A DNA stretch of 64,000 nucleotides from Candidatus Uhrbacteria bacterium (GTDB lineage Bacteria; Patescibacteriota; Patescibacteriia; JACPHY01), in NCBI GenBank assembly GCA_016188355.1, contig JACPHY010000003.1, positions 8,170 through 72,169 of the forward strand, read 5' to 3'. Positions within the stretch are counted from its first letter, which is position 1, and each line of letters begins with the position of its first letter. Positions 2,109-53,562 of this stretch are shown here, piece after piece. Below the pieces are notes generated by a model. It saw only the letters and a list, made by a program, of their open reading frames with translations, searched no databases and was not told where the DNA came from. A program made the position numbers and the translations under genes.

Positions 2109-2299
2109 GCAATCAACCTCCTGCCGCACGAAGGACCTCTACGGCACGGCGAGCGTACCCGCGATCGCTCATTTTGTCAACCGCTTGACCGGCGCATCGC
2201 AGTTGCCCACAATAAAGCTACACGTCCCCGCGTACCTCCTGATGGTACGCGTTTTCTCATGGGACCACGGACCAGCCGTGTCATCCGCTGGTCATCACT

Positions 2300-4321
2300 A
2301 TGATCTCCATACTCACCTTTGCGCTCCTCACCGCGCTCGCAGCGATTGCGTACGGCGGCATCCTCACCGCCCAAATCCTGAAGCTCCCCGCGGGTGAAGG
2401 GAAGATGGTTGGCATCGCACATGCGATCCAGGAAGGTGCGCGCGCATTCCTGAAGCGTCAGTACATCTCCGTCGCATGGATCGGCGCGCTCCTCTTCCTC
2501 GTCATTGGACTGCTCCCGAGCCTCGGATGGAACGTCGCGATCGGATTCCTCGTGGGCGCCGTGCTCTCCGCAGCTGCCGGCATCATCGGCATGATGGTCG
2601 CGGTTCGCGCAAACGTGCGCACGGCAGAAGCCGCAAAGTTGGGGCTCCCCCAGGCACTCGACGTTGCCGTGAAAGGCGGCGCCGTGACCGGCATGCTCGT
2701 CGTCGGTCTCGCGCTCCTCGGTGTTGTTGCCGTGTTCTGGATGGGCGGCGCGAATGGTGACGCGCTCCACATGCTCGTCGGTCTCGGCTTCGGCGGTTCA
2801 CTCATCTCGGTCTTCGCCCGACTAGGTGGCGGCATCTACACGAAGGCCGCAGACGTCGGCGCCGATCTCGTCGGCAAAGTAGAGGCGGGCATTCCAGAAG
2901 ATGATCCTCGCAACCCGGCAGTCATCGCAGATAACGTGGGAGATAATGTGGGCGACGATGCGGGCATGGCTGCGGATCTCTTTGAAACGTACGCAGTCAC
3001 CACAGTCGCGACCATGCTCCTCGGCGCACTCATCGGCGGCGCGGACTCCGCGGCCGTACTCTACCCGCTCCTCATCGGTGGCATTGGCATCATCGCTTCC
3101 ATTCTCGGTACCTTTGCGATTCGTCTCGGCAAGGGTTCCACGCAAATCATGGCCGCGCTCTATAAAGGACTTGCCACATCCGGTGTGCTTGCCGCGATTG
3201 GCATCGTCGTCATTCCCGGACTCTTCACCATCGGCAATGCGTCCTTCAACGTGCGTTCCGCGGCACTCTTCGGCCCTGCACTCATCGGTCTCGCCGTGAC
3301 CGCGCTCCTCGTGCTCATCACGGAGTACTACACCTCGACCGGATTCGCCCCGGTCCGCTCTATCGCGCAAGCATCGGAAACGGGTCATGGCACGAACGTG
3401 ATTCAAGGACTCGCGGTGGGCCTCCGCTCGACCGCGCTCCCCGTGCTCGTCATCGCCGCCGCCATCGGCTGCTCGTATGCGCTCGGCGGTCTCTATGGCA
3501 TTGGCATTGCGGCTATGGCCATGCTCTCGCTCGCGGGCATCATCGTGACGATCGATGCATACGGTCCCATCACTGACAACGCCGGCGGCATTGCGGAAAT
3601 GGCCGGACTTCCGGACTCCGTGCGCGCGATCACCGATCCGCTCGACGCAGTCGGCAACACGACCAAAGCGGTCACCAAGGGCTACGCGATTGGCTCCGCG
3701 GGACTCGCCGCGCTCGTGCTCTTCGCGGATTACACGCACGCCCTCGCAAGTCGCGGCCTCTCGGTGGAGTTCCGCCTCGATGATCCGAAGGTGCTCATCG
3801 GACTCCTCATTGGTGGCGTCCTCCCGCATCTCTTTGGCGCGCGCGCCATGGAAGCGGTACGCAAGGCGGCGAGCAGCGTGGTGGAAGAAGTGCGCCGACA
3901 GTTCAAGGAAATCCCCGGCATCATGGAGGGGACCAGCAAGCCCGACTACGGTCGCTGCGTCGATATTGTGACGAAGGCTGCCATCCGGGAGATGATCATC
4001 CCTGCGCTCCTCCCTGTGGTCGCACCGATCCTGGTCGGCCTATTCCTCGGCGCACAGGCGCTCGGCGGTCTCCTCGTCGGCGTGCTCATCTCAGGACTCT
4101 TCATGGCGATCGCCATGACGACCGGCGGAGCGGCATGGGACAACGCGAAAAAGTACATCGAAGCGGGCAATCATGGCGGGAAAAAGTCACCCGCACATCA
4201 GGCGGCTGTCACCGGCGACACGGTCGGCGATCCATACAAGGACACCGCCGGACCCGCGATCAATCCGATGATCAAAATCGTGAACATCGTAGCGCTGCTC
4301 ATTGTGGGACTGCTCGCGTGA
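2300..4321 (+). CDS. hppA: K(+)-insensitive/H(+)-translocating membrane pyrophosphatase
   Basis: 673 aa, many TM helices. Contains the diagnostic '[22 protein letters not shown]' and '[17 protein letters not shown]' motifs of V-type H+-PPases. Confidence 0.95.
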
Positions 4322-5895
4322 GCCTCGCGCCGCGGTACGCAATACCCTTGCCCATGTGGGCAGGGGTATTGACATACATGCCTCGCCTGCGGTTCCATGG
4401 TTGCGCGGCGCCGCAGGGCTGTGCAGTACATCGCATCGTGATGCCGTGCTCCGCAGGGCAGCACGGAGCGCCGGGCCGAGTACCCAATCTCGGTACATTC
4501 GTCCTTTCCTTCTTCCCCCATCACCTGCGCACTGCCCGGCAACGCATCGCAATGCCTCGTGCCGCACGGCGCAGCTTCGACTCGCGCATGCCAACCGCGA
4601 GCAATGGGACACATGCGTCTCTCGTCCTCCACCTCCCACCGCGCAGCGCACCGCAGCGCACCGCGTAGCCCAGCAAGACTCGTCCCGGCAGCAAATCGAG
4701 TCCAATCTCGATGCATCCGCCTGCCACCGATCACCGCCGCGCAGCAGTGCATCGCGTCGCGGCGTACTGCTATGCGCCTCAGAGCGTCGCTCCGGATGGG
4801 GACCATCCCCATCCCCCCTCCCCCTGCACTCATATCCATTGATAGCGGCGCCGTAGTGCTACGCACCGCAGCGCATCGTGATGCAGCGCACCGCACCCGG
4901 CCGGGTACCCAACCCCGGCCGTTTCATTTTCTCGCCATACCACTTGACGACACTCCACCATCCCGGTATCGTCGCTGCGATGTCGAATCCTTCCCAATCC
5001 ACTCGCCCACTGCCCATGTGCTCCCTCCTCCTGGTGGACGACGATATCCTCACGATGGAATCCTACTGCTGAGCAACGTGCAGTTCTGCTAGGCATCGCC
5101 CAGCAATGTAGCGCGTTGCCCGGTCCGGAGTTCGGTCGAATCCGAACCCTCCAGATCCTCCACGCGCCATCGCCCTGCCCTGCGCAGCCGGGTATCGCGC
5201 TGCTACGCAGCGCGCCGCGAAGCGCGGTAGCGTTGTGAATCGGGCCACATCCCGATTACGTATTCCTGCGCACCACGATCTCATCGTCGCCAGGCTACGC
5301 AGTGCTCTGCTGCGCTCGGCAATGCTTCGGGTGGGACTCCATTCTCATCACGTCTGTATACATGGTGGCCGTTGCATGCCCAGCTTCGCCCAGCTACGCA
5401 ATGCACCGCGCAGCACTGCGCTGCCCTGTCGAGCAACGCATCGCGGCGGGTGAGGCCCCATCCTCACCAACCACTACTTCCACCCGCATCGCCACTCTCG
5501 CACTGTTCCTTGTTTCTTGTTCTCTTGCGCCGCGTCATGCGGCAATGCAACGCACAGTTCTGCTTCGCGGTGTTTTGTCGCGGGTGGGGCCCCATCCTCA
5601 TCACTGATCCCGTATATACCCATTGCTCACTCAGTGTCGCAGTGCTGCGCCCAGCAACGCAGCGCACGGTTGCGCTACGCACCGCTCCGGACCAGGTCCA
5701 TCCCTGGTCCGTTTTCTTTGCCATGACACACGGAAATACTGCGTGCGCCCATCACTTGACAGCACCTCGCGATTTGTTAAGGTGCCGATCGTCTCTGCGC
5801 CGCATGAGCGACCGCAAGAGGCGACCGCGCCTTCACAATCACAACAAAAACCTCTCAACCGAGTAGAGGGAAGAAGGCGCAAGGAGTGAGTATTC
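4322..5895. repeat. 1.57-kb non-coding repeat tract: degenerate ~12-mer arrays (GCARYGCANCGC-like) interspersed with hairpins carrying a conserved CCCAWYC loop and GTTTTC tail
   Basis: No credible ORF here; the track ORFs are Arg/Ala-rich antisense-type artefacts. Runs such as 'gcgcagcgcaccgcagcgcaccgcgtagc' and 'gtcgcagtgctgcgcccagcaacgcagcgcacggttgcgctacgcaccgctcc' show 12-nt periodicity. Hairpins sit at about 4898-4933 (CGGCCGGG/CCCGGCCG + TTTCATTTTCTC), 5449-5468 (GGTGAGG-ccccat-CCTCACC), 5583-5612 (degenerate) and 5689-5720 (GGACCAGG-tccatc-CCTGGTCC + GTTTTCTTTG). Confidence 0.7.
5756..5783 (+). promoter_or_regulatory. candidate sigma70-type promoter upstream of paralog A (TTGACA-16nt-TAAGGT)
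   Basis: 'cacTTGACAgcacctcgcgatttgtTAAGGTgcc' about 110 nt upstream of the ATG at 5896. Spacing is acceptable; the -10 is weak. Confidence 0.3.
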
Positions 5896-8048: not shown

Positions 8049-9926
8049 ATGCGCGTCACGCTCACCGACTGTCTTGCCCAGTTTCCGCATCGCGCCATTC
8101 GCCCGGAGCAACAGGAACTCCTCGCCGCAATCACCGCAACTCCGGAGAGCATCACCATTGAGGGACCGACGGGCCTCGGAAAAACGGATGTGGCGATGTC
8201 CGTGCTCCGCGCGCGAGCGGCGACAGTGGCACAGGAACTTCGCGATCGCCAAGCGACCAATCCCGCCGCACGACCGCACCCGCGATGGTACTGCACGCCG
8301 ACGAAGAACGAGGTGGAACAAATCCAGCATCGATTCCCAGAGGTGCGCGTCATCTATGGGCGCAATGAGTATCCCTGCGCGTACTACCATGCGCGCGGCA
8401 TGCCGCTTGCCGCGGACGCCGTGCCATGCGCGACGCTCCGGAAGCAGCACTGCTGCCCGCATGCCATCGTGCCAGAGACCGGTCTCCCGGAAGATCCGCA
8501 CGCCGAGCCCTGTGCGTACCTCGCGGCGAAACATGCAGCGAAATCCGGAGGCATCGTCGTGACGACCACCGCATTTTTCCTCACGAGCTCGCTGCTCGCG
8601 CGCGATTGGGAAACGCCGGATACGGTCGTCATGGACGAAGCGGACCAACTCGCGGACATCGCGAGCCAACTCTTTGCGACGCACATTACCGATTCCGCGC
8701 TGCTCCAAATCTTGGCGCTCCTAGAACGCATCAACGACGCGCATCACGCGGATCTCTTCCGCACGTTCCTCGACATACTCCAACGGCACACGAGTCGTAC
8801 CCCTGGGGAATCGAAAATCCTCGAACCCACGCAGACCATCGCCCTGATCCAGCTCCTCGAACGTGCGCATTATCCGCATCTCCATGAACGCATCCAAACC
8901 GCGATGCGATCCGGGGTCTTGGATCCCGTGCAACAGCAATCGGAGCTCCGCATCCTCGAGGACCTCACGCGGAACATTCTCCGTTACCTTCGCCATCTCC
9001 GCTTCGCCGTAGGCGACGCCGATCGCGGGCCGCGCAATCTTGCCTTCGCGTATGCGGTACGAGAACGCGCGGACGGCACCATGGTCTGCCGCCTCGTCAT
9101 TGAGCCGTACCTGGTGAATGGACTCATCCGCGCGGCGGTTGGCGACCATGTCCTCGCCATGTCCGCCACCATTGGCGATGGGACGTACTTCGGATACGAA
9201 ACCGGACTCACCGCGCCGGTGTACCGAGTCGCGCGGTCCCCGTTTCCGATCCATCACCGACGCATCTATCTCCCCATCGATACACCCGACCTCGCCCATC
9301 GGGCACAGGAACGCAACACGCTGCGCGACGCGGTCATCCGCATTCTCGACTGCTGCGCGAAGTTCCGCGCGCGTGGCCATCGCGCACTGATCGTCACCAT
9401 GTCCAATGCGGAGCGCGATCACTTCGTGCGCCGCGCACCCGATGCGGGCCTCACTCTCATCTCGTATGGGAACGGCGTGACCGCACGTAATGCGCTCGAA
9501 CGATTTGTGCAGGGGGAAGGCGATGTGCTCGTCGGCACGTCCGCACAGTTCGCCACCGGCATTGATCTCCCGAAACAGATCGCGCCCATCATTGTGGCGC
9601 TCCGACCGAAGTATAGTAATCCGCACGATCCGCGCGCACAGTTCGAGGAATTGCAGCGCCTCTCCAAGGGCAAACGATTCGCCCGAGAACGATATCGCGC
9701 CACCAAGAATGCACTGCAGGTCTCCGGTCGCAATTGGCGCACCCCGGAGAGCGTAGGCATCACCATCTTCTACTCACGCCAATTCCGCGATCTCTTTCCG
9801 CAGGGATTACCGAGGTGGCTCGAACCCGCGTACGTCTCGACGCGTACACTCGACCAAATCGTCGAGGAGGCATGTGTCCTCCTCGACGCCGCACCCGACC
9901 TCCCGATCGCCGCCAGCAGCACCTGA
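8049..9926 (+). CDS. Rad3/XPD/DinG-like SF2 DNA helicase with Fe-S cluster domain
   Basis: 625 aa. Walker A 'IEGPTGLGKTD', motif II 'VVMDEADQL'. Cys-rich insertion between motifs I and II ('YPCAYYHARG...VPCATLRKQHCCPHAIV...EPCAYL') is typical of 4Fe-4S Rad3-family helicases. C-terminal 'VLVGTSAQFATGIDLP' matches motif V. RBS AAGGAGG upstream. Confidence 0.8.
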   Translation: MRVTLTDCLAQFPHRAIRPEQQELLAAITATPESITIEGPTGLGKTDVAMSVLRARAATVAQELRDRQATNPAARPHPRWYCTPTKNEVEQIQHRFPEVRVIYGRNEYPCAYYHARGMPLAADAVPCATLRKQHCCPHAIVPETGLPEDPHAEPCAYLAAKHAAKSGGIVVTTTAFFLTSSLLARDWETPDTVVMDEADQLADIASQLFATHITDSALLQILALLERINDAHHADLFRTFLDILQRHTSRTPGESKILEPTQTIALIQLLERAHYPHLHERIQTAMRSGVLDPVQQQSELRILEDLTRNILRYLRHLRFAVGDADRGPRNLAFAYAVRERADGTMVCRLVIEPYLVNGLIRAAVGDHVLAMSATIGDGTYFGYETGLTAPVYRVARSPFPIHHRRIYLPIDTPDLAHRAQERNTLRDAVIRILDCCAKFRARGHRALIVTMSNAERDHFVRRAPDAGLTLISYGNGVTARNALERFVQGEGDVLVGTSAQFATGIDLPKQIAPIIVALRPKYSNPHDPRAQFEELQRLSKGKRFARERYRATKNALQVSGRNWRTPESVGITIFYSRQFRDLFPQGLPRWLEPAYVSTRTLDQIVEEACVLLDAAPDLPIAASST

Positions 9927-47162: not shown

Positions 47163-47694
47163 ATCTTATGAGACCTCTGCAAGAATCGCTTTCGTGCCAG
47201 GGACGTGATGTTCGAGCGAGCTGCGCGACGCAGACCCGAGCGATATCCAGCGGATCTCGTGAACGGTCGAGGAACGCAGCGCAGCCGAACAGCGCGTTCC
47301 TGGCGCGAATCTGGATTTTTGCAGAGGTCTCTTATTGCAATATCCGATGAACACCATTGGTGCGCACCCGCTAGTCCGAAGTCACCGTACCGTAATGACA
47401 AAACGATGTCAATGGAGCACACGGGGATCGATTCCCCCGTCTCATTTCCTGATTCCAAAACCTGCGGCGCCGCGCACGCGTCATGGAGCATTCGTGGGGT
47501 CGTCCACCGCTTCTCCACCTCCCATCCACGGAAACGCCTCCGAGCGCGCTTGTCCTGCGTCCGAACATGCGCGAAAATAAAACGCGTAGCCGGTGGTATC
47601 TCGTTCGCGGCGGAGGAGCGCGCACGGGGATCTTGTTGGTGCGTGATGGTCCTCGTATACTCCACCCGCGGGTTAACGCGTGTCGGTGGTACGT

Positions 47695-49104
47695 ATGCTC
47701 GATTGCACGCAAGCATGGCAGGCCGTCCTTGGGGAGCTCGAACTCCTCATTTCGAAACCGAATTTCACGACGTGGTTCAAAGGTTCTGGCCTCCTCTCGT
47801 TCGATGAACAATCGGCGATCGTTTGCGTGCCCAACACGTTCACGAAGTCGTGGCTCGAACAGAAGTACCACCAGCACATTCTTCGCGCGCTCCAGAACGT
47901 GACGCAGGTGCGCATTCGTCAGGTGGTGTATCGCGTAGAGGTGGTGCGGGTAGAAGATCGCCCCCTCCGTCGGGAGATGCCCGTTGCCGCGGCAGCGGTT
48001 CCCACTGCATCCGCGCCGTATGCGACGGAATCCGCCGCAGCGGCACCAAAGGAAGCAGCGGTCGTGAATCAGTTCGGTCTCAATCAGAAATATCTCTTCG
48101 ACACGTTCATTGTCGGCAAGAGCAGCGAACTCGCGCACGCTGCGTGCCAAGCAGTAGGATCCGCGGTCATTGATGGCCGCCAAAAACCGTACAATCCGCT
48201 CTTCATTTACGGCGGCGTGGGCCTTGGGAAGACCCACCTCCTCCAGGCGGTCGGCAATCGCGTCCTCAAATCGATGCCGCAAGCACGCATCCGGTACGTG
48301 ACCTGCGAGCAGTTCATGAATGATTTTGTCGCAACCGTGCGTGGCGGACAGGGGAAGGACTTCCACGATCGCTACCGCAACATCGATCTCCTCCTCATCG
48401 ACGACATCCAGTTCATTGCCGGAAAAGAGGGCACCCAGGAAGCATTCTTCCATACCTTCAACCACCTCCATCAGAATGATAAACAGGTGGTCCTCACGTC
48501 CGATCGTCCACCAAAGGCAATTCCCGCGCTCGAGCAACGACTCCTCTCGCGTTTCGAGTGGGGCATGATCGCGGACATTCAAAATCCGGACCTCGAAACA
48601 CGCATTGCCATTCTTGAGGCGAAGTGTCGCGAGCGCAATTTCCCGGTCGCCACGGAAGTGGTCCGCTTCCTCGCAACGAACATCCAGAGCAACGTGCGGG
48701 AACTCGAAGGCGCGCTCAATAAGTTCTTCGCGCACGTGCAATTCCACAAAGTGCCGACGACGGTGGAGGTGGCGCGGCAGATCATCACGCAACTCAGCAC
48801 CCTCCCCCGGCGCACCGCGCTCACTCCGAGGCAGCTCGTGCAGGTCGTTTCCGATTTCTACGACGTGCCCATTCCCGACATTGTAGGGAAGAGCCGAAAG
48901 AAGGAGCTCGTCGTCCCGCGACAAATCATCATGTTCCTCATGCGTGAGGAGATGAAAGCGAGCTACCCTTCCATCGGCCAGGAGCTCGGCGGTCGCGATC
49001 ACACCACCGCAATGCACGCGTACGACAAGATTCGCACCGAGGTGGAGAATGACGAGAAGATCCGCCAGGACATCCAGCTCATCCGCCAACGCATCTACGC
49101 ATAA
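47695..49104 (+). CDS. dnaA: chromosomal replication initiator protein DnaA
   Basis: AAA+ 'NPLFIYGGVGLGKTHLL', sensor motifs, and C-terminal DNA-binding domain 'YPSIGQELGGRDHTTAMHAYDKI'. Start at second Met (47695); 47680 is also possible. Confidence 0.9.
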   Translation: MLDCTQAWQAVLGELELLISKPNFTTWFKGSGLLSFDEQSAIVCVPNTFTKSWLEQKYHQHILRALQNVTQVRIRQVVYRVEVVRVEDRPLRREMPVAAAAVPTASAPYATESAAAAPKEAAVVNQFGLNQKYLFDTFIVGKSSELAHAACQAVGSAVIDGRQKPYNPLFIYGGVGLGKTHLLQAVGNRVLKSMPQARIRYVTCEQFMNDFVATVRGGQGKDFHDRYRNIDLLLIDDIQFIAGKEGTQEAFFHTFNHLHQNDKQVVLTSDRPPKAIPALEQRLLSRFEWGMIADIQNPDLETRIAILEAKCRERNFPVATEVVRFLATNIQSNVRELEGALNKFFAHVQFHKVPTTVEVARQIITQLSTLPRRTALTPRQLVQVVSDFYDVPIPDIVGKSRKKELVVPRQIIMFLMREEMKASYPSIGQELGGRDHTTAMHAYDKIRTEVENDEKIRQDIQLIRQRIYA

Positions 49105-49153
49105 GAGTGAACGGAGAACCTCCCGCCACAATCACGTGGCGGGAGGTTGGTAT

Positions 49154-49609
49154 TCAGGCAGCAGCCGGAAGTGTTGGGAGCTCATGCCAGCGGGGCGCGC
49201 CGACGCTCACATTGTCCGCGAAGTGGGAGGGGTTGAGGGCATGGTCGTGCCCCGACGGAATGTAGAGGGGGACGAAATCGCCGATGCACTCCGTTCGGAA
49301 ACCAGCCGGGTTCAGGGTCGTGCCGGGGTGCAGGTACGTCCCGTCATTGCGCATCCCGCTGATCGAAACGCCGGCACGCGCGGATGCACAGCAGGCGCAC
49401 AGGAACTCCCCGCGCTGATCATGATCCTTGTAGCGCCACAACTTGCATCCCTGCGCCGCGCACTGCGTGCACCGCAACTTCCCCGCGGCCATCAAGCGCG
49501 TCCACCAATCCACCCATGCCATTTGCTCACTTCCTTTCTCATGCACGCACCGCAGCACGGCGGTGACCTGCTGATTGTTTTTATCAAACCAAGACTCCCC
49601 AAGCGCCAA
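49154..49609 (-). CDS. hypothetical Cys-rich protein (151 aa) inserted between dnaA and oriC
   Basis: 'LRCTQCAAQGCKLWRYKDHDQRGEFLCACCASA' (CxxC...C...CxCC) and 'SGHDHALNPSHFADN'. A possible metal-binding or nuclease-like fold, not assignable. Confidence 0.4.
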   Translation of the reverse strand: MALGESWFDKNNQQVTAVLRCVHEKGSEQMAWVDWWTRLMAAGKLRCTQCAAQGCKLWRYKDHDQRGEFLCACCASARAGVSISGMRNDGTYLHPGTTLNPAGFRTECIGDFVPLYIPSGHDHALNPSHFADNVSVGAPRWHELPTLPAAA

Positions 49610-49629
49610 GCGTTCAAGCTACAAGTACC

Positions 49630-50457
49630 TCACTCCCGCAAGCGAGGCACCGAGAGGCCCGAGTCGTCATTGCTACGGCCGCTGGCGCGGACGCTCACCT
49701 GACGAGAGCCGCATCTGAAGTGTACGACCACGACGTCCTGCCACGCCTTACCGCCGCTCTCGGGGACGTTGACCTCGTAGCCAGCGGCGAACAAGCCGGG
49801 GAGCTTGTCGTAGTCGATGGCGCGGATCATGTCCGGGAACATCCACGCGATCACGAGCAACTCGTCGGCGAGCGAATGGGTATCGCGTACCGCCGTGATG
49901 CTCTCGCGATCTCGGTTGGTGTTGCAATCGGCCACGATCCACTCGACGACCGCGTGGTGCGTGTGGTTGCCGTTCAGGAGCCGCAGGCACTCCACCGGTT
50001 CGCCCTTGTACTCGACCGCACCGGAGCGGAGCCGTTCCCAGGGCCAGAAGCGGCCCTCACCAAAGACGTGCTGGATGCGCGCGTAGTGCGCCTCAAAGGT
50101 CCTAGCAACTCCCTCGTCCCCCTCGCCGAAGCGGATGCGAAACGAACGGTAGGCGGACCTGCCCTTCGGCCACGCGGGAGCGGACGAAGTGAGACGGGTG
50201 AAATCCTCCTCGGTCAATCCCCACTGCTCCTCGTTATTGGCGCGACGGAGAGCGGCGAGTTGCGCGTCGATGGTCATTTCGTAGGAGCCCCTTCCATGCG
50301 CATCGATCAATCCCGGGATCGATTGCACCCACTGATCCATGAGATTGTCGTCACCGAGCAACAGAGCGAGCTGCTCAACCGTGCCGCCGAAGCGACCAAA
50401 CCGACCAAAGAACTCTGCGCTCTGTGTGATGCTCACTTCCGATGCAAGACTAGTCAT
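49630..50457 (-). CDS. hypothetical protein (275 aa), co-oriented 21 nt upstream of the Cys-rich ORF
   Basis: Start chosen at Met17 (GAGGAAGG RBS about 10 nt upstream; none before Met1 at 50505). No family recognised. Confidence 0.4.
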   Translation of the reverse strand: MTSLASEVSITQSAEFFGRFGRFGGTVEQLALLLGDDNLMDQWVQSIPGLIDAHGRGSYEMTIDAQLAALRRANNEEQWGLTEEDFTRLTSSAPAWPKGRSAYRSFRIRFGEGDEGVARTFEAHYARIQHVFGEGRFWPWERLRSGAVEYKGEPVECLRLLNGNHTHHAVVEWIVADCNTNRDRESITAVRDTHSLADELLVIAWMFPDMIRAIDYDKLPGLFAAGYEVNVPESGGKAWQDVVVVHFRCGSRQVSVRASGRSNDDSGLSVPRLRE

Positions 50458-50539
50458 GATGACCTGCCCTTCCTCTGCGCCGCCGACTAGCCCGGGTTCC
50501 GACACCTGTCGGATGACCGAACCTGCCTATTTTGGTTGA

Positions 50540-51099
50540 AAGCGGCATATTGCAGCCAATAAATTAGCCACAAAACGCCGCTTTCAACGAAGAATTCCAT
50601 GAAAAAGAACACTCATTTATAGCTCGTATTTGGGAAAAAGTCAAGCGTTTGAGCAAAAAAAACTCTTGTTCGCGCTATTTTTCAATTTACAAAGCGATGC
50701 TCTCCCATCCACGGGATCTTATCCCCACTTTCCACCGGTTATCCACTTACCCACTCCGATCCACAGAATTATCCCTCAACTCTGATAAATTTCCACATGT
50801 GGACCCATAGTCGATAGGGGTATGGAACACTGGGGCGCGTCCTGGTGATGATTCGATCACTATTCCACACCCATTTTTCGTGCCCGTTTTTGATCCCCAT
50901 TTCCTTCCCCATCCTCCCCCGCGCTACCCACGGGTTCGGCGAACTTGTGGATTGCGGTGGATTACGCTACACTGAGCTGTAATTGTGGTGCATCATTTTG
51001 ATGCCTTTGCGAGTATCCACCGCCTTATTATTATTCTTAGTATCTCTATATCTTAAGAGAGAAGAATAAGAGTACGGCATTAATGAGGAGGAAACCGAC
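50540..51099. other. candidate chromosomal origin of replication (oriC): AT-rich region with clustered DnaA-box-like 9-mers immediately upstream of dnaN
   Basis: Only extended AT-rich block in 64 kb. Boxes: 'TTATCCACT', 'gATCCACAg', 'TTATCCcTC', palindromic 'TTCCACATGTGGAc', 'TTGTGGATT', 'GGTGGATTA', 'AGTATCCACC'. AT-rich unwinding-like stretch 'ttattattattcttagtatctctatatcttaagagagaagaataagag'. Confidence 0.6.
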
Positions 51100-52224
51100 A
51101 TGCAATTCTCGTGCACTCAAGAAAATTTCCGGATCGCGCTCGGCCTCCTGAGTCATATCGCTGCCCGGCAAGGAACATTGCCCATTCTCTCCAATGTCCT
51201 TTTGCGAGCAGAATCGAAGGTGCTCACGTTGGTGGCGACTAATCTCGAGTTGGCGATGACATGTGCGCTTCGCGGCAAAGTGGAAGAAGATGGCGCAGTG
51301 ACGGTGAATGCGAAACTCTTGGGGGATGTAGTGAATCTCCTCCCGAAGGATCGCGTCGATGCGCAGACACATAGTGCGGAGCTCGAACTCTCCTGTCGTG
51401 GGAGCAACACCAAGGTGCGTGGTATGGATGCGGCGGAGTTCCCGCTCATTCCCACGGTGGATCGCGGTGCGGAGGCACGGGTGCGAATCCAGGAACTTCG
51501 GGAGGCGCTGGGGAGCACAGCGTTTGCGGTAGCGGCTACAGAGAGTCGCCCGGAGCTCGCGGGGGTACTCATCACCTTCGAATCGAGCGCGCTCACGGTG
51601 GTGGCAACGGACAGCTACCGACTGGCGGAACGAAAGCTCCCAGTGATCGCGACGACGGTTCCTGCGGGCATGAGTGTGATTGTACCGGCGCGGACGATTC
51701 AGGAGGTGCTCCGGGTCCTTGGGGTGCTCGAGGGAACGGATGATGCAGGCGAGGAGGTGGCGATTGCGGTCACCCCCACACAGCTCCTCATTACGATTGG
51801 TGGACTTCAAGTTGTCTCGCGTCTCATCGATGGGACATATCCCGACTACGCACAGATCATTCCCCGTTCGGCGTCCACGCGCGTCCGTGTCCCACGTGGC
51901 GAGCTACAATCCATTGTGCGGGCCGCAAGTCTCTTTGCGCGCACTGGGGTGAATGATGTGCACCTTCGCATGCTGCCGAATGAGCATCAGTTGGTGGTGC
52001 GCTCGGAGAATGCGCAATTGGGCGAATACCAGTCCATTGTGAGCGCGGAGGTCACCGGCGACGCCGCGCAAACGATTCTCAATGCTCGCTACCTTCTCGA
52101 CGGACTCGCCGCAATACCCGACGCGGATGTTTTTATCGAACTCACCGGCGCCGTCGCACCGGTTGTTATCCGCCCCGCGGAGCTCACGGGGTACCTCTAC
52201 ATCGTGATGCCCATTAAGCAGTGA
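51100..52224 (+). CDS. dnaN: DNA polymerase III subunit beta (sliding clamp)
   Basis: 374 aa. N-terminal 'MQFSCTQENFRIALGLLSHIAARQGTLPILSNVLL' and three-domain clamp architecture. GAGGAGG RBS. Confidence 0.9.
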   Translation: MQFSCTQENFRIALGLLSHIAARQGTLPILSNVLLRAESKVLTLVATNLELAMTCALRGKVEEDGAVTVNAKLLGDVVNLLPKDRVDAQTHSAELELSCRGSNTKVRGMDAAEFPLIPTVDRGAEARVRIQELREALGSTAFAVAATESRPELAGVLITFESSALTVVATDSYRLAERKLPVIATTVPAGMSVIVPARTIQEVLRVLGVLEGTDDAGEEVAIAVTPTQLLITIGGLQVVSRLIDGTYPDYAQIIPRSASTRVRVPRGELQSIVRAASLFARTGVNDVHLRMLPNEHQLVVRSENAQLGEYQSIVSAEVTGDAAQTILNARYLLDGLAAIPDADVFIELTGAVAPVVIRPAELTGYLYIVMPIKQ

Positions 52225-52287: not shown

Positions 52288-53562
52288 TTACTTTTGGGCG
52301 GCAACCAGCGTTGGAGGTGCTGAGGAACGACGTTGTTTTGCTTGCGTTGTTTTGAGCGCATGCACGCAGAAGGGGTGTGTCCAATCGACGCGATACCCGG
52401 TGTAGACTCCCTCTCCGCGGGGGTGCGGGGCATTGCACGGGATGAGGATCTTGATGCGGATGAGGAGGTTGAGGAGGGCGCGGCGATCGTCTTCGGTCAC
52501 CGCGGATTGCTCCTCACGGGGAATGCTGCGGAGGAGTTCCCGGAGATGGCGATCGAATCCAAATTCGGGATTGCCGTTATGTTGGCGGTGGAGATGGGAG
52601 AAGAAATGGCGGAGCACGCGTTCCACGAATGGGGCGCGGAGTTGGATGCGGAGGAGCGCCTCCTCTTGTGCGCGCGGCGTGGTGCCGAGGAGACGCTCCA
52701 AATCGCCCATGATGTCCGCGGGATTCCATCGGCGCGTTTCCTCCTCGATCTCCTCGGGCAGGGTGAGGACGATGCGCTGGACGCCATCCATGCGTGCGAG
52801 CGGTGCGCGATGGCGAAAGGTCGCCGCGGCGCATTGCCACTGTTGATCCAAGACGCGCCGCGCAAGGGGTATGAAGTTGCCGTCGTCGCTCACGAGGATC
52901 ACGCCCGCCACCACGTCCCGCCGGAGCATCTGGAGAAAATCGAGGACGTAGGTGATGAGGCTGGGATCCACCATGTCCTTCGTGCCGTGGAGTGCGTCGC
53001 AGTGGAATCCAATGGGGAATCCCGCCTCCGCAAATGCCTTCCGCCCCTCCCAGGGGATTGCGTCGTAGTTGCCGATGGCAAACGTGGTGGCGATCGGATG
53101 CCTCCGCACGAGTTGTCGCTGGAGATGACCGGGGCGTAGAGGCACGCCTGCGTCCGCGTGGATGCGGTACACGTTGTTTGCGTCTATGACCACGACCCAC
53201 GAGCGCGGTTCCGATAGCGGAGCGATGCTGGTGGGGAGTGGGGTGAGTGTGGTGGGTGGCGGTGTGGGCTCGGGCAACGATTCGCCTACGCGAGAGATGA
53301 TGGCATAGCTCACGCCCCCTTTCTTCTTGAGGTGTTGGAGTTGTACGAGTGCGCCGAGCGCTTCGGAATCCAGTCCCGCCTCGCGGAGCACCTGCCATGG
53401 ATTGACGACGATGAGTTCGCCCGTCGCATCGGACGTGGCGTGCGCACGAAGGGTCGCCATGATGTTGGCGAGGCCCGGAATTTGATTCACCGTTTCCTCC
53501 TCCTCGATTCCCTTGCGTTGGGAAAGGGCACGCGCTAGTGGCGCGTCGACCGAACGTACCAC
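52288..53562 (-). CDS. NYN/LabA-like (PIN-fold) domain protein
   Basis: 'WVVVIDANNVYRIH...ILVSDDGNFIPLARRV' is the NYN-domain acidic-residue pattern. Long helical C-terminal region. Confidence 0.55.
   Translation of the reverse strand: MVRSVDAPLARALSQRKGIEEEETVNQIPGLANIMATLRAHATSDATGELIVVNPWQVLREAGLDSEALGALVQLQHLKKKGGVSYAIISRVGESLPEPTPPPTTLTPLPTSIAPLSEPRSWVVVIDANNVYRIHADAGVPLRPGHLQRQLVRRHPIATTFAIGNYDAIPWEGRKAFAEAGFPIGFHCDALHGTKDMVDPSLITYVLDFLQMLRRDVVAGVILVSDDGNFIPLARRVLDQQWQCAAATFRHRAPLARMDGVQRIVLTLPEEIEEETRRWNPADIMGDLERLLGTTPRAQEEALLRIQLRAPFVERVLRHFFSHLHRQHNGNPEFGFDRHLRELLRSIPREEQSAVTEDDRRALLNLLIRIKILIPCNAPHPRGEGVYTGYRVDWTHPFCVHALKTTQAKQRRSSAPPTLVAAQK

Follow-up and report, generated by a model that had tools for sequence, protein, structure and literature searches.

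In the stretch examined here, a 64-kb window from a Candidatus Uhrbacteria (Patescibacteria) metagenome-assembled genome, dnaA is separated from the replication origin that abuts dnaN by two minus-strand genes, here called ORF A and ORF B. The ~1.6-kb block that holds them (about 49105-50690) is a small, isolated, lineage-specific insertion. We consider it likely that this insertion is a composite of two modules, wherein an orphaned target cassette of a diversity-generating retroelement (DGR), equipped with a structured 5′ leader, has been joined to an unrelated zinc-ribbon gene. No other natural system outside adaptive immunity is known to produce targeted hypervariation of proteins, and DGRs are very frequent in Patescibacteria.

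Evidence for the insertion comes from comparison with related genomes. Scanning of species-representative genomes with the DnaA protein of the window yielded 80 Patescibacteria loci, 78 of which hold both dnaA and dnaN. The gap between the two genes measures 1,995 bp in the window and 58-509 bp in all 78 relatives, and none of these loci carries a relative of ORF A or ORF B within 6 kb. A preliminary description of this DNA had placed two co-oriented minus-strand genes between dnaA and dnaN and had regarded them as an accessory insertion. Both statements are borne out by the ORFs found, by Pfam matches that identify DnaA and DnaN, and by the fact that the same two genes occupy this position in 0 of the 78 relatives. 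The gap is ~370 bp in the two nearest relatives (L010 and L011), whose DnaA proteins are 74-75% identical to that of the window (75% for L010, the nearest). Synteny with L010 includes a transporter gene, rnpA, dnaA, and dnaN, and similarity stops after dnaN. Neither a convincing target-site duplication nor convincing terminal repeats flank the insert, and no integrase or phage genes are present among the neighboring window genes that were scanned.

An assembly artefact, in which a chimeric join was made at a repeated cassette sequence, deserves consideration given the metagenome-assembled source and the presence of an internal breakpoint within a hairpin that is repeated among paralogs (see below). 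However, dnaA on one side and the origin with dnaN on the other are two halves of one conserved locus in the right order and orientation, and an artefact would therefore need two compensating misjoins. Furthermore, the composition and codon pattern of the insert match those of the host: the GC content at third and second codon positions follows the coding pattern of neighboring genes in both ORFs (0.76 and 0.79 at third positions, 0.51 and 0.46 at second positions). We regard an artefact of this kind as hardly credible.

ORF B belongs to a family of DGR target proteins

Searches with ORF B, annotated in this genome as hypothetical protein HYV74_01665, recovered 226 homologs at E<=0.001, with identities of 46-77% among the matches listed. 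Those homologs that carry names are mostly assigned to Uhrbacteria or to the Patescibacteria group. None of the 226 has a Pfam domain; ORF B itself has no match in Pfam, PHROGs, PADLOC, or NCBIfam, and the family has none in the PDB. The AlphaFold2 (AF2) model of ORF B has a confidence (pLDDT) of 88.5. The first six homologs examined reside in six distinct genomic contexts, where all are stand-alone genes preceded by a spacer of 200-400 bp. When the ORFs of 63 loci were clustered, the only recurrent neighbor was a reverse transcriptase, found at 11 loci, with the accessory protein bAvd at 7. A conserved partner gene beside ORF B was also sought by this clustering, which gave only shadow ORFs and DGR genes.

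The identity of the family becomes apparent at seven distinct homolog loci, where the last ~135-146 nt of the gene, the variable region (VR), are repeated 330-560 nt downstream as a template repeat (TR) with 85-93% identity. The fractions of mismatches that fall at TR adenines in these loci are 12/14, 10/10, 18/20, 17/18, 19/19, 18/19, and 11/11. A reverse transcriptase gene follows the TR, as identified by Pfam RVT_1 in L091 and L139, and genes similar to these two follow in L095, L118, and L119, wherever the sequence continues. The TR of L091 translates to ...WQNVVIVNFNRDNRQVNVNANDRSNDNSNYSVPRLR, wherein AAC codons stand exactly at the variable alignment columns of the family. A VR in the target gene, a TR, and adenine-specific mutagenesis are the features by which DGRs are defined (PMC8144416, PMC5758913). 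Because VR/TR pairs, adenine-specific mismatches, and a reverse transcriptase recur among the seven loci, we identify the ORF B family as DGR variable (target) proteins. This assignment was not noticed in the preliminary description, which likewise passed over the structured leader and the lack of any conserved pairing of ORF A with ORF B.

The family conforms well to the DGR targets described for the Candidate Phyla Radiation (CPR), which is equivalent to Patescibacteria (clade 2, Roux et al. 2021, PMC8144416; Wu et al. 2018, PMC5758913). The seven homolog loci have a C-terminal VR with AAC-rich template codons, and the family's lack of recognizable membrane or Pfam domains and its confinement to Patescibacteria fit what has been described for such targets (PMC8144416). 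In agreement with this, the ORF B sequence has no obvious signal peptide or membrane segment when inspected by eye (compare PMC8144416). The same loci also share with CPR DGRs the downstream TR, the adenine mismatches, the RVT_1 gene beyond the TR, and a post-VR hairpin. Several differences are also evident. Most of the ORF B family members seen are stand-alone, whereas surveys describe mostly a single adjacent target; a C-type lectin fold is not confirmed for the family; the family has a structured 5′ leader that was found neither in Rfam nor in the DGR literature searched; and the window copy lacks a TR and reverse transcriptase within the 64 kb and has a truncated post-VR hairpin.

The DGR of Bordetella phage BPP-1 (mtd-avd-TR-brt; Guo et al. 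2011, PMC3240598) offers a second point of reference. It has the same order of target, short spacer or small ORF, TR, and reverse transcriptase, the same adenine-specific mutagenesis, and a GC-rich hairpin with a 4-nt loop after the VR. In contrast, the ORF B elements are cellular and absent from phage collections (no relatives in INPHARED, which holds isolated phage genomes, or in IMG/VR), their hairpin is much longer and includes a CUUGG...CCUUGG motif, and the small ORF of L091 does not match bAvd. The sole phage-like context seen for the family is in L139, where a terminase large-subunit RNase H-like protein (2299-3798; Terminase_6C, 4.7e-05) is encoded just upstream of a DGR-linked homolog. 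DGRs usually encode Avd between VR and TR. The 74-aa ORF at this position in L091 (5006-5230), which has no Pfam match, could encode a divergent accessory protein or be spurious.

We then compared the VR of the window copy with TRs from other loci. Against the heterologous L091 TR, mismatches occur at 19/34 adenine positions and at 10/103 other positions (Fisher p=1.1e-7), and six further TRs reveal an adenine bias with p between 1e-4 and 0.016. This bias indicates that the window VR was once written by a DGR with a related template. The window VR has the end CTCGGTGCCTCGCTTGCGGGAGT, which resembles an initiation of mutagenic homology (IMH) element and which the DGR-linked L090/L091 copy shares without change. 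However, nowhere in the 64-kb window does the VR recur as a TR-like repeat, and tblastn with three reverse transcriptases associated with the family gives no match there. A possible TR remnant inside ORF A was rejected, as only 14-30-nt repeats at chance level are present there.

Most ORF B homologs, whether DGR-linked or stand-alone, have a strong hairpin 10-50 nt after the stop codon, which takes the form GGGGRRYCUUGG, a small hairpin with a 4-nt loop, and CCUUGGYYCCCC. No Rfam family matches this structure. In BPP-1, a hairpin/cruciform is needed for target recognition (PMC3240598), and by analogy the family hairpin is probably a cis element for retrohoming. In the window copy this hairpin is truncated, with a breakpoint at ~49584 in the hairpin loop that separates the ORF B module from the ORF A module. 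Given the truncated hairpin and the absence of a TR and reverse transcriptase in the 64 kb, the window copy of ORF B is most likely an orphaned, frozen target and is probably no longer competent for retrohoming.

Comparison among family members supports a gradient of VR decay. Stand-alone copies with intact hairpins differ from their best heterologous TRs almost exclusively at adenines, for instance at 21/36 adenines versus 3/110 other positions in L006 and at 13/33 versus 1/101 in L114. At the other extreme, L109, L115, and L138 have a plain terminator in place of the hairpin and decayed VRs with 33-38 non-adenine mismatches. The window copy, with its 10/103 non-adenine mismatches, is intermediate.

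These same data bear on the alternative that ORF B is an active remote target, whose VR is rewritten in trans by a DGR located elsewhere in the ~1-Mb genome, with the hairpin truncation being tolerated or the hairpin replaced. Approximately three-quarters of the family members with >=2 kb of flanking sequence lack a nearby TR or reverse transcriptase, and several differ hardly at all from heterologous TRs outside the adenine positions, which suggests that trans-targeting is common in the family. Remote targets have been documented for other DGRs (PMC5758913), and the VR end of the window copy is the same as that of a DGR-linked copy, as noted above. Nevertheless, the 3′ arm of the conserved hairpin is gone, the non-adenine divergence from the best TR is 10% in the window copy compared with 1-3% in apparently active remote targets, and CPR DGRs in surveys usually have a single adjacent target (PMC5758913). 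Continued rewriting of the window copy in trans therefore appears unlikely to us.

Our preference for an orphaned target, expressed under the control of its own leader, must be balanced against several considerations. The search for a TR and reverse transcriptase covers the 64 kb of the window, and a DGR elsewhere could act in trans; it is by extrapolation from the DGR of the Bordetella phage (PMC3240598) that the 3′ hairpin is given a role in retrohoming. With regard to expression, both the ORF B promoter and the co-transcription of ORF B with ORF A are predictions. With regard to the leader described below, five homologs lack it, including the L095 copy that resides behind rnpA-yidD, and the duplex comparison used to evaluate its alternative pairing takes no account of phylogenetic relatedness.

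DGR targets in Patescibacteria were already known, as were remote targets elsewhere. New are the identification of the ORF B family with its many stand-alone members, the apparently orphaned and truncated copy between dnaA and the origin, and, above all, the conserved switch-like 5′ leader that has no Rfam counterpart. That members of the ORF B family can be recognized as DGR targets even when no retroelement is nearby explains many of the ‘hypothetical proteins’ in Patescibacteria genomes. The fact that most copies are stand-alone yet marked at adenines points to frequent trans-targeting or orphaning, which contrasts with the single adjacent target reported for CPR.

Other features of the family were observed in passing. 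In alignment A3, the C termini of some members stop at ...LRE, whereas others add a conserved SPALGA or SPALGT tail, which extends the gene into the region before the 3′ hairpin and does not strictly track with DGR linkage. A complete DGR cassette is present in L095 (150-4713) directly after rpmH-rnpA-yidD, on the other side of a dnaA gene whose product is 58% identical to that of the window. It includes an ORF B homolog (2649-3491), a TR (3876-4014; 10/10 mismatches at adenines), and a reverse transcriptase gene from ~4309. This is a second origin-proximal placement of ORF B, although one extra case among ~29 loci is not statistically compelling. Finally, L008 (1-9000) contains a stand-alone ORF B homolog and, 2.4 kb upstream of it, a different DGR that includes bAvd and a reverse transcriptase. 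The VR of this DGR (2584-2717) lies in a gene for a 211-aa protein, its TR spans 3056-3189, and 15/18 mismatches are at adenines. A 211-nt direct repeat in the same locus (4991-5201 and 8075-8285, 94% identity) brackets Fic, AEP-TOTE, and ORF B genes, and the bracketed block may be a duplicated or mobilized segment.

A conserved, switch-like RNA leader precedes ORF B

Upstream of ORF B, a predicted promoter is followed by a structured leader (Table 1) and by a Shine-Dalgarno (SD) sequence, GAGGAAGGG, at about 50465-50473, just outside the leader coordinates. In an alignment of the spacers upstream of ORF B and of six homologs with unrelated surroundings (A4), the promoter is located at a constant distance upstream of the leader. 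The promoter and leader together are present in ~90% of family members, including the window copy and both DGR-linked and stand-alone genes. The leader is always in the sense orientation between promoter and SD, and it ends 12-23 nt before the start codon. Since five homologs have no leader, it is not an obligatory feature of the family.

The window leader has a folding z-score of -5.2 relative to shuffled sequences, and the individual folds of 27 homolog leaders, L003 excepted, share one architecture. A long imperfect hairpin, P1/P2, carries the sequence GGCGUUUUG, which is invariant in most members and changed in those that diverge most. After this hairpin come a linker resembling AACAAAGG, a hairpin called P3, and a GRCGGC element, with the SD located 5-10 nt further downstream. 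In an alignment of 24 sequences (A7), 93.3% of the cells in the P1/P2 helix are paired and 13/23 pairs exhibit compensatory changes. These values were not attained in any of 500 column shuffles, and controls in which the pairing is slid give 35-47%. RNAalifold applied to plain MAFFT alignments recovered P1 only, because indels cause P2 and P3 to become misaligned. A covariance model (R1) scores the window leader at 81.1 bits (E=2e-18) and finds matches upstream of ~40 distinct homologs, on the gene strand, and essentially nowhere else in 0.4 Mb of loci.

Two of the 23 P1/P2 pairs are mostly U-G on the sense strand (18/24 sequences each), and several others include G-U. The confinement of G-U pairs to the sense strand argues that the leader acts as an RNA rather than as a duplex DNA site. 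The opposing view, that the element functions as DNA in the form of a palindromic operator or an attC-like recombination site, draws on the fact that the leader core is a long inverted repeat with 29-nt arms, whose opposite strand also scores 43.7 bits with the model, and on core ends (GTTGAAA...TTTCAAC) that we take to bear a loose resemblance to integron core sites. However, the U-G and G-U pairs would be A-C mismatches on the other strand, and the loop tolerates 30-70-nt insertions that themselves fold. Moreover, the second hairpin and the covarying downstream partner described below exist on the sense strand only, and the orientation between a conserved promoter and SD is invariably sense. 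An attC site is further contradicted by the position of the inverted repeat upstream of the gene, by a core-like motif order that is the reverse of that in attC, and by the lack of an integrase match among the neighboring genes scanned in the window. A DNA site is thus an improbable explanation for the element.

To assess pairing in a manner that does not depend on alignment, the predicted duplex energy of segments from each sequence (self) was compared with that of segments drawn from the other sequences (non-self), using 2000 permutations. This test takes no account of phylogenetic relatedness, and its values should be read with this in mind: -17.0 (self) versus -12.8 kcal/mol (non-self) for the P1 5′ strand with the P1 3′ strand, -9.4 versus -6.5 kcal/mol for the arms of P3, and -11.0 versus -9.15 kcal/mol for the P1 3′ strand with the downstream GRCGGC element, with 0/2000 permutations reaching the self value in each case. 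Five control segment pairs were not significant. The covariation is also visible in individual sequences, wherein the GCGGC/GCCGC pairing of P1 changes to AUGGC/GCCAU or GUGGC/GCCAC and the downstream element changes in step. Because the downstream element covaries with P1, the P1 3′ strand has two mutually exclusive partners, which is a hallmark of RNA switches.

We propose that the leader probably controls the translation or stability of the mRNA by switching between these two pairings, in which the P1 3′ strand would pair either with the P1 5′ strand or with the GRCGGC element next to the SD. Two other pairings were considered and set aside, as the self and non-self values did not differ significantly for the P3 3′ strand with the region preceding the AUG or for a 5′ pyrimidine tract with the SD (892/5000). 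Many leaders have a conserved GTTCTTT just downstream of the predicted -10 box (50590-50615 on the minus strand in the window), and leaders of the L105 type have CACCTTCC in its place together with a GAGGTG-type SD. This tract may be a 5′ anti-SD tract.

The leader resembles translational riboswitches and protein-binding leaders, such as those of ribosomal-protein genes, in its position between promoter and SD, in its covarying helices, and in the two mutually exclusive pairings of the strand next to the ribosome-binding site. It differs from riboswitches in that it has no Rfam match and no terminator stem, and in that the conserved GGCGUUUUG resides in a long, imperfect helix and not at a junction of several helices. 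Specifically, none of the 4,227 Rfam families matches a leader at E<=1 in the window region 48900-51300 or in seven homolog loci (one tRNA was the sole hit), and we found no description of such a leader in the literature searched. A type III toxin-antitoxin reading was ruled out by the motif order, the position, and the absence of tandem repeats. Among viral contigs, the 47 exact-pattern matches approximate the number estimated for chance, and one weak model match was obtained (24 bits).

Taken as a whole, these characteristics make the leader a candidate for a new cis-regulatory RNA, which might function as a riboswitch, in protein autoregulation, or as a stability element. A native riboswitch has not been reported for Patescibacteria in the literature searched, and the leader adds a candidate regulatory RNA to this group. 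A switch-like leader implies that the expression of the variable proteins is regulated, and so the timing of DGR-target use could be approached experimentally. A bolder reading, which we put forward tentatively and rather doubt, is that the leader represents a cis-regulatory RNA of a new class, either a riboswitch or a protein-bound sensor, that gates the production of hypervariable proteins in Patescibacteria, most members of the family being remote targets rewritten in trans. If so, these ultrasmall bacteria would maintain collections of diversifiable binding proteins under independent regulation, and one such protein would have become fixed beside the replication origin.

ORF A and the junction of the two modules

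ORF A, annotated in this genome as hypothetical protein HYV74_01660, was previously described as a Cys-rich 151-aa protein. Its Cys-rich character stands, with four invariant cysteines, but its length is probably 122 aa. The 151-aa form starts at TTG 49609, and its codons 1-8 fall inside the truncated arm of the ORF B hairpin. We take ATG 49522 as the start because AAGGAAG is located 8 nt upstream of it, because the resulting protein is of a size typical for its family, and because the TTG resides in the hairpin arm.

A word-indexed search with ORF A found only the protein itself, and a full phmmer search found 29 relatives, mostly of 104-152 aa, that align from residue ~33-48 to ~145-150. ORF A and 25 distant relatives share invariant C47, C50, K56, L57, W58, C71, C74, and G90, and a C-terminal W..LP motif contributes two nearly invariant positions, W141 and L144. 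Of these 26 alignment members, 15 match the Pfam family DUF7573 (E down to 1e-9) and 7 match the GATA zinc finger; ORF A itself falls below every Pfam threshold. The AF2 model (pLDDT 77; below 50 for residues 1-4 and 16-23) has no significant fold match in the PDB, where the only zinc-finger matches (ZZ domains) are at chance level, with E about 4. From these sequence comparisons, we take ORF A to be a divergent Cys4 zinc-ribbon protein. It has the CxxC...CxxC arrangement of DUF7573/GATA-like zinc ribbons with a conserved KLWR between the cysteine pairs, but differs from DUF7573, an uncharacterized Cys-rich domain described from halobacteria (PMC11952846), in remaining below the Pfam threshold and in having, along with its relatives, an extra C-terminal WW..LP helix.

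The suggestion in the preliminary description that the protein might be an HNH nuclease or another nuclease is not supported by any match in Pfam, PHROGs, NCBIfam, or PADLOC, and the His and Asp residues of its proposed H-D-H motif fall in a variable segment of the 26-member alignment. PADLOC likewise reports no defense system for ORF A or ORF B, and ORF A has no relative in INPHARED. A relative of ORF A (P0133) is encoded among many small co-directional ORFs in a phage-like contig (L145, 1-11002). Among the strong PHROG matches of this contig are those to a DNA topoisomerase (2.8e-111), a DHH phosphoesterase, a DNA methyltransferase, and a transposase, and this gene set is by sequence a replication-type module of phage.

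One could imagine that the two genes work together as an accessory unit, for example as a nuclease, defense, or toxin-antitoxin system, and were acquired jointly at an origin-proximal hotspot. The genes are indeed co-oriented and 107 bp apart (20 bp if the TTG start is used) with no predicted terminator between them, and the relative in the phage-like contig is compatible with acquisition. However, ORF A relatives accompany ORF B homologs at none of roughly 50 distinct loci, which indicates that the two are separate modules joined at ~49584, where the cassette breakpoint lies between them. Given also that neither protein matches PADLOC, HNH, or any nuclease family and that the His/Asp motif of ORF A is not conserved, we consider a functional pair to be very improbable.

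Under our preferred interpretation as a composite of separate modules, the first module (about 49584-50690, minus strand) would comprise the promoter, the structured leader, ORF B with its C-terminal VR, and the first half of the post-VR hairpin. In the complete cassettes of relatives, the TR would be copied by an error-prone reverse transcriptase, and the resulting cDNA would overwrite the VR with random bases at template adenines. Either the arrival of the cassette near the origin or the loss of its TR and reverse transcriptase would have occurred by recombination that cut the 3′ hairpin and joined it to a zinc-ribbon gene of mobile origin. The VR would thus bear the marks of past adenine mutagenesis while now being frozen, with the orphaned target expressed from its own regulated promoter. 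The second module (49149-49583) would consist of the unrelated gene for the Cys4 zinc-ribbon protein, which has a ribosome-binding site of its own and is probably transcribed together with ORF B. Both genes would be transcribed leftward from the ORF B promoter, away from the origin and co-directionally with the leftward replication fork, and transcription would end at a 13-bp hairpin shared with dnaA. Through its leader, the cassette could set the translation of a now-fixed variant of a binding protein.

The replication origin and the surrounding locus

The preliminary description had also assigned the origin to the region next to dnaN, and this agrees with the GC skew of the window, which is negative up to ~50 kb and positive from ~51 kb, with a sign change at ~50.5-51 kb and a cumulative minimum at 50-52 kb. 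DnaA-box-like sites were defined as 9-mers with at most 2 mismatches to TTATCCACA. Ten of the 103 such sites in the whole 64 kb are found within 340 bp from ~50690, which is the densest stretch of the window, and the last 79 bp before dnaN have a GC content of 35%. Together, the skew turn, the DnaA-box density, and the AT-rich 79 bp make the call of a dnaA-dnaN-type origin sound. The size of this origin and its AT-rich element, TATCTCTATAT..., also match the dnaA-dnaN spacers of L010 and L011. The AT-rich DnaA-box cluster that had been described does abut dnaN as stated, but ~185 bp of it (50506-50690) are the promoter and 5′ leader of ORF B and are outside the origin.

In its DnaA-box cluster and AT-rich element upstream of dnaN, its GC-skew switch, and the location of rpmH-rnpA upstream of dnaA, the arrangement is that of a Bacillus-type oriC. 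It differs in the ~1.6 kb of foreign DNA between dnaA and the boxes, which is seen in 0/78 relatives. The locus thereby illustrates that 1.6 kb of foreign DNA, predicted to be transcribed, can be tolerated between dnaA and its boxes.

Table 1. Features of the insertion and its borders (window coordinates).
Feature	Coordinates	Strand	Description
dnaA	47695-49104	+	Left border of the insertion; Pfam DnaA_N, Bac_DnaA (4.8e-66), Bac_DnaA_C; possible start at 47680
Inverted repeat I10	49117-49148		Perfect 13 bp, 6-nt loop, 100% complementary; between the convergent stops of dnaA and ORF A
ORF A	49154-49522	-	Probably 122 aa from ATG 49522; annotated as 151 aa from TTG (49154-49609)
Hairpin remnant	49584-49629	-	5′ arm (GCGCTTGGGGAGTCTTGGTTTGA) and loop kept; 3′ arm (CCTTGGCTCCCC...) replaced by unrelated sequence
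ORF B	49630-50457	-	275 aa from ATG; 291 aa from upstream GTG (to 50505); Patescibacteria DGR variable (target) protein family
VR of ORF B	49632-49768	-	Last 137 nt, codons for ...NVPESGGKAWQDVVVVHFRCGSRQVSVRASGRSNDDSGLSVPRLRE
Structured 5′ leader RNA	50474-50590	-	~115 nt; long hairpin P1/P2, linker, hairpin P3, GGCGGC element
Predicted sigma-70-type promoter of ORF B	50616-50644	-	TTGACT, 17 nt, TATAAA
oriC	50700-51099		DnaA-box cluster (about 50706-51021) and AT-rich unwinding-type element (51021-51099), abutting dnaN
dnaN	51100-52224	+	Right border of the insertion; Pfam DNA_pol3_beta, _2, _3 (three beta-clamp domains)

The inverted repeat I10 is probably a two-way terminator shared by dnaA and ORF A, a role that can be assigned only by inference because a clean U-run is lacking. 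The rpmH, rnpA, and yidD genes upstream of dnaA are on the minus strand, and the surrounding genes of the window have housekeeping functions, including a class A penicillin-binding protein, DNA polymerase I, adenylosuccinate lyase, and a dehydrogenase. Two long ORFs with mirror-image GC at codon positions, 47371-49131 (minus strand, 586 aa, opposite dnaA) and 49049-49702 (plus strand, 217 aa, opposite ORF A), arise as artefacts from a GC content of 60% and are not genes. Right after dnaN, positions 52288-53562 of the minus strand encode a 424-aa protein with an NYN (PIN-like RNase) domain (Pfam 8.6e-07). This gene is not syntenic in the nearest relative L010 and may be a second lineage-specific gene flanking the origin.

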